A stretch of 64,000 nucleotides of DNA, from sequence record PP274704.1; one strand, written 5' to 3'. This DNA is from Escherichia phage ECp13. The position numbers and the translations under genes are program-made. How positions within the stretch are numbered: the first letter of the stretch is position 1; every line of letters starts with the position of its first letter. The notes beneath the pieces are model-generated. The model did no database searches. It had not been told where the DNA came from and saw nothing but the letters and a program-made list of their open reading frames with translations. Of the stretch, positions 7,387-11,782 are shown piece by piece.

Positions 7387-7410
7387 TGCTTCAGTTTCAT
7401 GTGTTATAAT
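7385..7410 (+). promoter_or_regulatory. middle promoter (MotA box ATGCTTCA plus TATAAT) for gene 1
   Basis: TGCTT box about 12 bp upstream of TATAAT at 7405-7410. Confidence 0.55.
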
Positions 7411-9827: not shown

Positions 9828-10118
9828 ATGATTCTTTATGCGAAAGTATCATCCATTGAAAATGGATATAAATATGATCAAGAAGCAGCTAAAGCCTTGA
9901 TTGATGATTATGGCGTTTTAACATATTTTGAAGTTGAAAAGGTTTACATTGGCCGTTCATCTTCTCAAGTTAAATTAGTAAAGGAAGACCGTACATTTAA
10001 TACAGTAAATTTTGATTTCTTTATTGAAACAGAAAAAGGTCCTCTTGAATATGATATTTTCAAGAATCCTTTGGGTCTTGAATGTATTAAATATACTTAC
10101 ATTAATGCAGCGTGGTGA
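9828..10118 (+). CDS. hypothetical protein
   Basis: First in-frame ATG 2 nt after preceding stop; 96 aa. Confidence 0.5.
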   Translation: MILYAKVSSIENGYKYDQEAAKALIDDYGVLTYFEVEKVYIGRSSSQVKLVKEDRTFNTVNFDFFIETEKGPLEYDIFKNPLGLECIKYTYINAAW

Positions 10119-10120
10119 AA

Positions 10121-10636
10121 ATGAATATTTGTTTAGGTACTACAATTCCGCAGGGCTACGTAATTGATGTCACTACCTGGGAAAATGATGGTGACAACTA
10201 TAAAACTAAAACACTGTTTGACGTAGAAGAGCATGAAATCTTACAATTTCAGTATCTTTTAAAGAAGTTTAAAAGCAGATATTCTAGTACTAAAATTGAG
10301 CGCTATTGTGGTAATGGTTTGTTCAGCGAGCAATCTCTTTTTATTTATGAATACTTGGTTGAAGGACTGTTCTCAGACCAGCTTTATCCAGAATTCATTA
10401 AAAAGGTCTTTCGCATAGAAGTTGATCTTGGTAATAAATCTGAAGAAGATGAAGAACGTGTATTTGACTTATTCTTTGTGAATGGTAATAAAGTGCTTGA
10501 AGGACTTATTAATATTTTAGGTAATGCTTCTGAGTATTATGATTATGATTTTTTGCGTGTAGTTGAGAGTGTTAAATACTCTTATATAGAAGAAGAAATT
10601 GTTTTGCCGACAGTTAAAATGTTTAATTTGCTTTAA
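10121..10636 (+). CDS. hypothetical protein
   Basis: 171 aa from ATG at 10121; acidic C-terminal half. Confidence 0.5.
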   Translation: MNICLGTTIPQGYVIDVTTWENDGDNYKTKTLFDVEEHEILQFQYLLKKFKSRYSSTKIERYCGNGLFSEQSLFIYEYLVEGLFSDQLYPEFIKKVFRIEVDLGNKSEEDEERVFDLFFVNGNKVLEGLINILGNASEYYDYDFLRVVESVKYSYIEEEIVLPTVKMFNLL

Positions 10637-10721
10637 GAATTATTTGTTATTATTAACTCATATCGCACTGATTAATACCCTCTATCATCAAGGGTTCTTG
10701 TTTGAGAGCCTTTGTTAATAA

Positions 10722-10781
10722 TTTTGGTAGAGCGCCTGATTTGGGATCAGGAGGTCCAAGGTTCAAATCCTTGTATGGAGA
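10722..10781 (+). tRNA. tRNA-Pro-like fragment (anticodon UGG), 5' part not foldable
   Basis: Perfect anticodon arm CCTGA/TTTGGGA/TCAGG and T-arm CAAGG/TTCAAAT/CCTTG, but no D-stem or acceptor 5' strand upstream. Confidence 0.3.
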
Positions 10782-10783
10782 CT

Positions 10784-10883
10784 GGAGGCGTGGCAGAGTG
10801 GTTTAATGCACCGGTCTTGAAAACCGGCAGTCGCTCCGGCGACTCATACTAGGTCGTAGGTTCGATCCCTACTGCCTCGACCA
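10784..10883 (+). tRNA. tRNA-Ser-like (anticodon UGA) with encoded CCA, atypically long variable region
   Basis: Acceptor GGAGGCG, anticodon arm CCGGT/CTTGAAA/ACCGG, T-arm GTAGG/TTCGATC/CCTAC, 3' ACCA; about 10 extra nt before T-stem. Confidence 0.45.
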
Positions 10884-11195
10884 AACAAGAAACCGGGTCG
10901 CTACCGGTAAGTCGTCGGACTGATGTTCCCTGGAGTATAGTTCCTCCCACAGTTTTACTGTGTTCTGGTTCTTTACTATCACAGCTGAAACGGCGCACCG
11001 AATTATCGATTCGAGGAAATATCTTTGCCGTAAGCCGAGTAGCGTTTTTGACGGAACGTTCGGATATGGTCGAGATATGGCCTTTTAAAAATATTGAGTA
11101 GCGTCAACTGCTTAATAACCGGGTTCGAATCCCGGCGTTTCGTACAAACACTTGCCTTAGCAGGTGGAACCCCGACAAGGTTGCCGCAAGGCTTA
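10884..11195 (+). ncRNA. structured non-coding region of the tRNA cluster (possible small stable RNAs)
   Basis: No ORF; multiple hairpins; tRNA-like T-arm CCGGG/TTCGAAT/CCCGG at 11119-11135 with a pairing acceptor stem; T4 encodes small stable RNAs here. Confidence 0.25.
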
Positions 11196-11222
11196 GCCCC
11201 GACCGAAAGGTTGGGGCTTTTT
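11196..11222 (+). terminator. intrinsic terminator hairpin
   Basis: CCCCGACC-GAAA-GGTTGGGG followed by CTTTTT. Confidence 0.6.
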
Positions 11223-11224
11223 AG

Positions 11225-11232
11225 TATAAATA
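11225..11232 (+). promoter_or_regulatory. late promoter TATAAATA
   Basis: Exact TATAAATA 40 bp upstream of the IP-like gene at 11273. Confidence 0.55.
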
Positions 11233-11272
11233 TAGTAGTATATTAAATCCACGAATTAAAACAGGAAATAAG

Positions 11273-11746
11273 ATGAAATCATATGCTCAATTTTTAAATG
11301 AAGCGGTGTTAAATGAAGCATCTAGCACCGAAATTCAAGCCGTCGCAAAAGCAGCCATTGCAGCGGGTAAATATTCCTATAAAGATGCTTCTGACGAATC
11401 ACGATTCCAATTTGCTCGCGACATGAAAGCAGAAGGATTTACGGGAAATGCGGTTAGTATGGCCTGGAAAAGTCTAGTTGCTACTGGCGCTGCTTTTGCA
11501 AAGGCTTCGGGTAAACCTGCTCCTAAAGCAGATCCTAAAGCTGCACAAGAAAAAAATATCGTTAAAGGAATTATCGCTAAATATGAAGCTATCCTTAAAG
11601 AGCTTTTAGTAATCAAAACCGAAGGCCAAAAGTTAGCCCGTGCTTATAGTTTCAAAGATAATCCACATGTTCACTCTCTTGAGTATGTTGAAGACATTCA
11701 AAAAATTATTAAAGACCGCATTTGGTCTGCTAAACAAATCAAATAA
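11273..11746 (+). CDS. internal-protein-like protein with capsid targeting sequence
   Basis: 157 aa; N-terminus MKSYAQFLNEAVLNE; late promoter upstream; flanked by near-identical hairpins. Confidence 0.65.
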   Translation: MKSYAQFLNEAVLNEASSTEIQAVAKAAIAAGKYSYKDASDESRFQFARDMKAEGFTGNAVSMAWKSLVATGAAFAKASGKPAPKADPKAAQEKNIVKGIIAKYEAILKELLVIKTEGQKLARAYSFKDNPHVHSLEYVEDIQKIIKDRIWSAKQIK

Positions 11747-11754
11747 CATTCTTA

Positions 11755-11782
11755 ACCCCGACCAAAAGGTTGGGGCTTTTTG
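11755..11782 (+). terminator. intrinsic terminator hairpin (near-duplicate of 11196-11222)
   Basis: CCCCGACC-AAAA-GGTTGGGG followed by CTTTTT. Confidence 0.6.

Follow-up and report, generated by a model that had tools for sequence, protein, structure and literature searches.

Deletions in the transfer RNA (tRNA) region of bacteriophage T4 are textbook material, the classical ones being those that Wilson, Kim and Abelson reportedly described in 1972. Here we analyse the corresponding RNA cluster in Escherichia phage ECp13, using a stretch of 64,000 nucleotides (nt) from sequence record PP274704.1 that we refer to as the window. From leader to terminator the cluster occupies positions 10637–11225, and all of its features lie on the + strand. 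T4-like phages carry anywhere from 0 to 24 tRNAs and pseudo-tRNAs are on record among them, with three predicted tRNA pseudogenes in Aeh1 and one in 44RR (PMC1524935). The region is non-essential (PMC2330249); a T6 mutant engineered to lack its tRNA-rich region is viable, although it shows a greater sensitivity to Septu (PMC13096335). Practically all sequenced tequatroviruses have a tRNA cluster, which was recently shown to help the phage to resist tRNA-cleaving host defences such as Septu (PMC13096335).

In its normal form the locus begins with a middle promoter and a leader, continues with ten tRNA genes followed by two small stable RNAs, rnaD and then rnaC, and closes with a terminator. Sfk20, pSs-1 and RB6 each carry the ten tRNA genes (Gln, Leu, Gly, Pro, Ser, Thr, Met, Tyr, Asn and Arg), while T4 has eight. 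The region in the window is 95–99.5% identical to many Tequatrovirus genomes, the best match being Shigella phage Sfk20 (pSs-1 species), and by this similarity the window can be assigned to the pSs-1/Sfk20 type of Tequatrovirus. The first 25 kb of the window are at most 98.2% identical to any phage record; as judged from these identities, it is a distinct mosaic genome. A first-pass annotation, made from the letters of the window, had taken the T4 cluster as its reference. It was correct in giving T4 eight tRNAs, but the proper ancestor is the ten-tRNA cluster of the pSs-1/Sfk20/RB type. The T4 region has the same genome position and direction of transcription as that of the window and a nearly identical leader, but it differs in having Ile and segB where Met, Tyr and Asn stand, and its eight tRNAs are intact.

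Compared with the pSs-1/Sfk20/RB3–RB6-type cluster, the promoter-like element, the leader, rnaD, rnaC, the terminator and the flanking open reading frames (ORFs) are the same in the window, but two blocks totalling 666 bp are gone and not one tRNA gene is left intact. In our view the locus has, with high probability, arisen from the standard Tequatrovirus RNA cluster by two internal deletions, which leave a headless tRNA-Pro fragment and a fusion of tRNA-Ser to tRNA-Arg. It is an unusual deletion derivative of a classical, well characterized dispensable locus and not a new kind of element.

Two deletions within the tRNA cluster

The deletions were mapped by a direct blastn comparison of the window with the Sfk20 locus (L001). 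Four colinear blocks are found: window 10001–10723 with L001 1102–1824 (99.4% identity), 10723–10848 with L001 2089–2214 (100%), 10849–10884 with L001 2617–2652 (100%) and 10887–11781 with L001 3017–3911 (99.0%). The second and third blocks, of 126 and 36 nt, hit genuine tRNA genes with E values of 4e-64 and 4e-14 and are not chance matches. In the comparison with the many Tequatrovirus genomes, 1,101 bases of the window match in several pieces that span about 2.1 kb there.

Deletion 1 corresponds to L001 1825–2088 (264 bp) and brings the final leader base directly in front of nt 16 of tRNA-Pro, taking out Gln, Leu, Gly and nt 1–15 of Pro. Deletion 2 corresponds to L001 2215–2616 (402 bp) and places nt 65 of tRNA-Ser next to nt 42 of tRNA-Arg, taking out nt 66–87 of Ser, the whole of Thr, Met, Tyr and Asn, and nt 1–41 of Arg. 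Both junctions are blunt, with a single shared nucleotide at junction 1 and none at junction 2. As the junctions have only 0–1 nt in common, a repeat-mediated deletion or a collapse during assembly was rejected; the repeats that were available, TTGGTA (Gln/Pro) and TAGGTTC (Ser/Arg), have not been used. Translocation was likewise rejected, as the deleted segments give only chance-level matches across the 64 kb. The two deletions, their exact end points and the loss of every tRNA recognized by ARAGORN at default settings are shown directly, as is the intact state of the promoter-like element, leader, rnaD, rnaC and terminator.

A further gap relative to Sfk20 (L001 2653–3016) was considered as a third deletion and rejected. 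The arrangement of the window at 10884–10887 is the common natural one and occurs in 189 records, 16 of which are identical, including pSs-1; only two deletions are therefore required. In Sfk20, L001 2653–3016 contains an ORF of 116 amino acids (phrog_3355, function unknown) between tRNA-Arg and rnaD. This ORF is a presence/absence polymorphism, being present in Sfk20 and many others and absent from the window, pSs-1, T4 and RB6.

The upstream ORF ends with its stop at 10636 and the following one begins at 11273, which leaves 636 bp in between, close to the 600 bp of the first-pass annotation. The suspicion raised there, that deletions in the tRNA region had left pseudo-tRNAs, is borne out by base-level alignment to intact relatives. 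The loss is confined to the tRNAs; the two small stable RNAs are both retained.

The headless tRNA-Pro fragment

The first remnant (10723–10781) is a 3' fragment of tRNA-Pro(UGG), comprising nt 16–74 of 74 and thus a pseudo-tRNA of 59 nt. It is 100% identical to L001 2089–2147, and its anticodon and T arms are those of the intact tRNA-Pro(UGG). The 5' strands of the D stem and of the acceptor stem are absent and leader sequence stands in their place. This is the Pro-like element with anticodon UGG that had been noticed earlier for its good anticodon and T arms and its lack of a D arm and of an acceptor 5' strand, and its description was accurate.

The leader is able to pair weakly with the acceptor 3' strand of Pro through C-G, U-A, U.G, U.G, G.U, U-A and U.U (three Watson–Crick pairs, three G.U pairs and one U.U mismatch), which is why the fragment remains just above the gathering score of 29 bits of the Rfam tRNA model (RF00005). 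It scores 30.3 bits (hit 10710–10781), compared with 66.8 for the intact gene. The pairs of the D stem in the Rfam alignment are non-canonical and the minimum free energy (MFE) fold lacks a D arm altogether. ARAGORN reports the fragment only at lowered thresholds (-ps), and the RNA is probably degraded.

The Ser/Arg chimera

The second remnant starts with nt 1–65 of tRNA-Ser(UGA) at 10784–10848, which are 100% identical to L001 2150–2214. These hold the acceptor 5' strand, the D arm, the anticodon arm, the variable stem-loop and the first three nucleotides of the T stem, and end at junction 2 (10848/10849). They are followed at 10849–10883 by nt 42–73 of tRNA-Arg(UCU) and its encoded CCA (10881–10883), 100% identical to L001 2617–2651, which contribute the last two nucleotides of the anticodon stem, the variable loop, the T arm and the acceptor 3' strand. 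The chimera is 97 nt long, or 100 nt with CCA, and its anticodon is UGA.

The acceptor stems of Ser and Arg are identical at pairs 2–6, and the fusion can therefore still form six of the seven acceptor pairs. The stem consists of a G1.G72 mismatch, five Watson–Crick pairs and G7.U66. The clash at the first pair follows from the difference between Arg, where this pair is C1-G72, and Ser, where it is G1-C72. The discriminator base is A, where intact Ser has G. Between the variable stem and the T stem are 11 unpaired nucleotides compared with one in intact Ser, so that the geometry of a class II tRNA is not obtained. This over-long segment combines the start of the Ser T stem (three bases) with the end of the Arg anticodon stem (two bases) and the Arg variable loop. 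The Ser-like element had attracted attention for exactly these features (the UGA anticodon, the encoded CCA, the long segment before the T stem and the G-G clash at pair 1-72), all of which we see; the last two are explained by the fusion of Ser(1–65) to Arg(42–73).

A very unlikely alternative is that the chimera is a working tRNA, either a serine acceptor reading UCA whose variable region is enlarged, or a stable decoy that resembles a tRNA. Its Rfam score (49.4 bits, hit 10784–10880) is far above the threshold, although below those of intact Ser (62.6) and intact Arg (68.1). The anticodon arm, the variable stem-loop and the T arm are intact, CCA is encoded, and the acceptor pairs that form include G2-C71 and A3-U70. 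The cloverleaf has an energy of -32.9 kcal/mol, 0.9 kcal/mol above the MFE structure at -33.8 kcal/mol. Recognition by seryl-tRNA synthetase, however, depends on the long variable arm, and this arm is displaced in the chimera by about ten extra nucleotides, in addition to the G1.G72 mismatch and the exchange of the discriminator G for A. The predicted pairing probability is only about 0.18 for the D stem and about 0.42 for the T stem. ARAGORN accepts the chimera, as a tRNA-Ser, when introns are allowed, which requires that a 12 nt 'intron' be declared, and rejects it at default settings. Finally, the sequence is unique and there is hence no conservation that would argue for selection. The chimera would at best be a poorly folded, probably uncharged tRNA-like RNA.

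Detection of tRNAs in the window and in related loci

At default settings ARAGORN finds no tRNA in the whole 64 kb window, while the same program reports 8–11 tRNAs in each of 14 related loci. Recovery of intact canonical tRNAs by such software had been named beforehand as the outcome that would speak against a reduced cluster, and this claim stands. The Rfam tRNA model gives two hits in the window, which are the two remnants. For annotation purposes, the Rfam model thus calls both remnants tRNAs and ARAGORN correctly does not. The intact tRNA-Tyr of Sfk20 (L001 2406–2489) scores only 30.2 bits with the Rfam model, about equal to the headless Pro fragment, and the Rfam score alone therefore cannot separate real phage tRNAs from remnants.

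With the Pro fragment degraded and the chimera probably uncharged, the phage would rely entirely on host tRNAs. Such reliance would be viable because the region is dispensable in T-even phages.

Uniqueness of the junctions

Probes of 60 nt over junctions 1 and 2 have no match in 50,697 phage records, and the exact junction strings are absent from IMG/VR, a metagenome collection and the GTDB genomes. A query in which the leader is fused to rnaC retrieves 718 records, none of which has both parts within about 600 bp of each other; in the window the two parts are separated by 283 bp. Ten public assemblies that encode the identical downstream protein of 157 amino acids contain neither junction and all have 8–11 intact tRNAs. 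What is new is thus the configuration, a Tequatrovirus without an intact tRNA in this window, with a traceable Ser/Arg fusion and with rnaD and rnaC spared, which was not found in any other sequenced relative in the collections searched.

In the laboratory deletions of T-even tRNA regions, including that of T6 (PMC13096335), tRNA genes are likewise gone from a dispensable locus and the phage is viable. In the window, by contrast, the loss took the form of two separate blunt deletions, of either natural or laboratory origin, which left a fusion tRNA behind and did not touch rnaD and rnaC. The remnants resemble the tRNA pseudogenes of Aeh1 and 44RR in being tRNA-like sequences inside the cluster that fail as canonical tRNAs, with the difference that they can be traced base by base to specific deletions of genes that are intact in relatives.

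That the small locus is ancestral and that the relatives have gained tRNA genes is hardly credible. The number of tRNAs does differ widely among T4-like phages (PMC1524935), but the retained pieces are partial genes, cut at Pro nt 16, Ser nt 65 and Arg nt 42 and 100% identical to the intact genes. Intact tRNAs are present in all 14 relatives examined, and none of the 718 related records has leader and rnaC close together. The structure of the partial genes refutes this ancestral arrangement.

Highly improbable, in our opinion, is that the deletions are not biological and stem from an error of assembly or consensus or from a deliberate laboratory edit. The junctions are unique among all public data searched, and they represent two clean blunt deletions close together. 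Yet an assembly collapse needs shared repeats, which the junctions do not offer, and a designed deletion normally removes whole genes in one piece, while here an island of 126 bp is left and four tRNA bodies are cut. The remainder of the region is colinear with, and 99–100% identical to, the relatives. The structure of the junctions thus argues against an artefact.

Some points weigh against the view that two deletions have converted a standard cluster into one without functional tRNAs. Two independent blunt deletions 126 bp apart are unusual, as spontaneous deletion in T4 usually makes use of short repeats. An artefact of sequencing, assembly or editing is formally possible in an analysis based on the assembled sequence. 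The lack of function of the chimera is inferred, while its Rfam score and a cloverleaf less than 1 kcal/mol from the MFE structure point in the opposite direction.

Having lost its ten tRNAs while rnaD and rnaC persist, the phage provides a ready-made knockout for the contribution of tRNAs to host range, defence evasion and codon supply, and the defined Ser/Arg fusion is useful for studying tRNA processing.

Endonuclease genes in related clusters

Genes for homing endonucleases are present at the corresponding positions in two of the assemblies that encode the identical downstream protein, L009 (ENA ERZ27246296 k119_1208) and L006. Both have an HNH gene inside tRNA-Gln (L009 663–1271 and L006 683–1291; phrog_14736, E = 2.5e-123), and hence these phages have no tRNA-Gln. 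In addition, L009 encodes a GIY-YIG protein of which the N-terminal catalytic 117 residues are 83% identical to T4 SegB and the C-terminal, DNA-binding half is unrelated. This suggests a relative of SegB with a swapped target-recognition domain.

SegB recognizes the sequence GGTTCRANTCC ... CCAR in almost every tRNA gene of the T2L-type cluster and cuts near the 3' end of the tRNA (PMC2330249). The exclusion of the T2L tRNA cluster by SegB described in the same study concerns the same locus and the same T-arm/CCAR motifs as are affected here, and the close relatives carry SegB-like and HNH genes within the cluster. In SegB homing, however, the target is replaced by the donor allele, whereas in the window the targets are simply deleted and no nuclease gene is gained.

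Origin of the deletions

How the deletions arose is accessible only by inference. The tRNA region being dispensable, simple loss of non-essential DNA is a sufficient explanation. A tentative alternative, which we regard as possible but unlikely, is that the deletions are scars of homing endonucleases. SegB-like GIY-YIG and HNH nucleases of a co-infecting relative would have cut a cluster devoid of endonuclease genes at several tRNA genes. The ends would then have been resected by 24–73 nt and the left arm, the 126 bp island and the right arm joined illegitimately, resulting in a genome without preferred cleavage sites that is immune to further marker exclusion. This proposal concerns the origin only and is compatible with the two-deletion account of the locus.

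Of nine tRNA T-arm sites at which CCAR is correctly spaced, the window lacks eight (Gln, Leu, Gly, Ser, Thr, Met, Tyr and Asn, the last being the major site). The T-arm motifs that are left are those of Pro, without CCAR, of Arg, with CCAR but an imperfect motif, and of rnaC, again without CCAR. The left end of deletion 2 coincides with the first base of the Ser motif. The HNH gene of L009 and L006 replaces nt 8–71 of Gln, its left boundary being located 6 nt from the left end of deletion 1, and the GIY-YIG/NUMOD3 gene of L009 (1448–2098) exactly replaces tRNA-Pro, where deletion 1 ends. Multiple cuts would also account for the presence of two deletions and for the retention of the 126 bp island between them. 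The cluster is so dense, however, that any breakpoint falls within 90 nt of a site, and the association is statistically weak (roughly p = 0.05–0.1 by an informal estimate). Moreover, homing normally repairs breaks by copying the donor (gene conversion) and not by end joining.

The locus of the window itself contains no nuclease gene, and there is no homologue of SegB in the 64 kb. A nuclease encoded in the window was rejected on the basis of tblastn with T4 SegB, for which the best E value is 0.23 and the weak hits lie inside large ORFs of 246, 282 and 660 amino acids. These are putatively dCMP hydroxymethylase, beta-glucosyltransferase and the baseplate protein gp6.

One may go further and see in the collapsed cluster an escape from attack by homing endonucleases, with the targets deleted instead of nuclease genes being acquired; we consider this doubtful. 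If it were true, all tRNAs and their anti-defence value would have been traded for immunity to marker exclusion, and the phage would illustrate how, in nature, T-even phages can counter free-standing homing endonucleases, at a cost, by losing the target sites. If the idea of endonuclease scars is wrong, the phage is an ordinary deletion variant of a dispensable locus.

The retained stable RNAs

The two stable RNAs were placed by alignment to the annotated RB6 locus (L004) and T4 cluster, the latter comparison having been recommended at the outset; rnaD lies at 10885–11000 and rnaC at 11006–11144. The homologue of rnaD (species 2 RNA) begins 1 nt after the CCA of Arg, as in RB6. Aligned to the annotated RB6 rnaD (L004 2506–2626), it is identical in 87 of 121 columns, with the ends conserved and the centre replaced, while its identity to the Sfk20 sequence is about 99%; it is thus the Sfk20-type allele. 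At least two alleles of rnaD exist. The first ∼48 nt and the last ∼25 nt are conserved, and the central ∼45–50 nt (10932–10985 in the window) of the window/Sfk20 type cannot be aligned with those of the T4/RB6/pSs-1 type. The predicted fold of the allele in the window is no better than that of shuffled sequence (z = -0.68).

rnaC (species 1 RNA) is intact, with homology over its full length to the annotated RB6 and T4 genes. It is identical to RB6 rnaC at 139 of 139 positions and to T4 rnaC at 137 of 139. No further RNA gene of the cluster stands between it and the conserved terminator, and it folds at -50.2 kcal/mol (z = -4.55). Its conservation is extraordinary: with the leader–rnaC query, 489 phage records give a best match of at least 99% identity, and this match is to the rnaC part of the query.

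The 3' domain of rnaC (11052–11143) is tRNA-like, with an acceptor-like stem (11052–11058 paired with 11135–11141) and a T arm, GGTTCGAATCC, at 11122. A third element with a T arm had been reported near 11052–11143 by the first-pass annotation. The element is present, but it is not a remnant of decay: it is this domain of an intact rnaC and looks alike in every T4-type phage. In its relaxed modes ARAGORN calls the 3' two-thirds of rnaC a 'tRNA-??? (4-nt anticodon)' or a 'tRNA-Leu with a 5-nt intron'. An Rfam scan of the rest of the locus gave nothing near threshold, and neither rnaC nor rnaD is represented by an Rfam family. No function is known for either RNA (PMC3014915). Their retention upon loss of the tRNAs is consistent with, but does not establish, a separate role for both.

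Predicted promoter, leader and terminator

A MotA-dependent middle promoter of the RNA cluster is predicted at 10626–10653, where TTTTGCTTTA is followed after 12 nt by TATTAT. This fits the published consensus for MotA-box middle promoters, (a/t)(a/t)(a/t)TGCTTtA at 12 ± 1 bp from the -10 element (PMC2988021), and the element is invariant in T4, RB6, pSs-1 and Sfk20. A scan of the leader for sigma-70 promoters on the + strand found none, the relevant type of promoter being MotA-dependent. The shortened locus is likely still transcribed from the MotA-type promoter, and RNase P would still release rnaD and rnaC.

The 94 nt leader upstream of tRNA-Gln is almost invariant across T4, RB6, pSs-1 and Sfk20. 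In the window it is intact in the alignment (10637–10722) and its last base abuts deletion junction 1 (10722/10723). On the other side of the RNAs, a structured trailer and intrinsic terminator occupy 11145–11225, where the terminator scan identifies a strong hairpin at 11195–11218 followed by a run of T. This segment has a fold z score of -4.17 and is conserved in T4, RB6 and pSs-1. Its first part, 11145–11194 between rnaC and the terminator, is conserved through to T4 and strongly structured, with two or three hairpins; it could belong to the rnaC precursor or constitute an element of its own.

Variation around the cluster

Just upstream of the leader is an ORF of 171–174 amino acids at 10112–10636 (phrog_2290, function unknown). 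Sfk20-type phages have it, but pSs-1, RB6 and T4 do not; in these three the leader comes immediately after Trna.2. Some close relatives have an eleventh tRNA, His(GUG), between Asn and Arg (L006 2090–2165 and the equivalent positions of L010, L013 and L014), and the content of the cluster is fluid even among phages with an identical downstream protein.

The MotA-box pattern (TGCTTYA, 11–13 nt, TANNNT) occurs 13 times in the window compared with 2.35 expected, for example at 7387, 21080, 36578, 47539 and 61844. These 13 sites should be an aid in mapping the middle transcription units of the phage.

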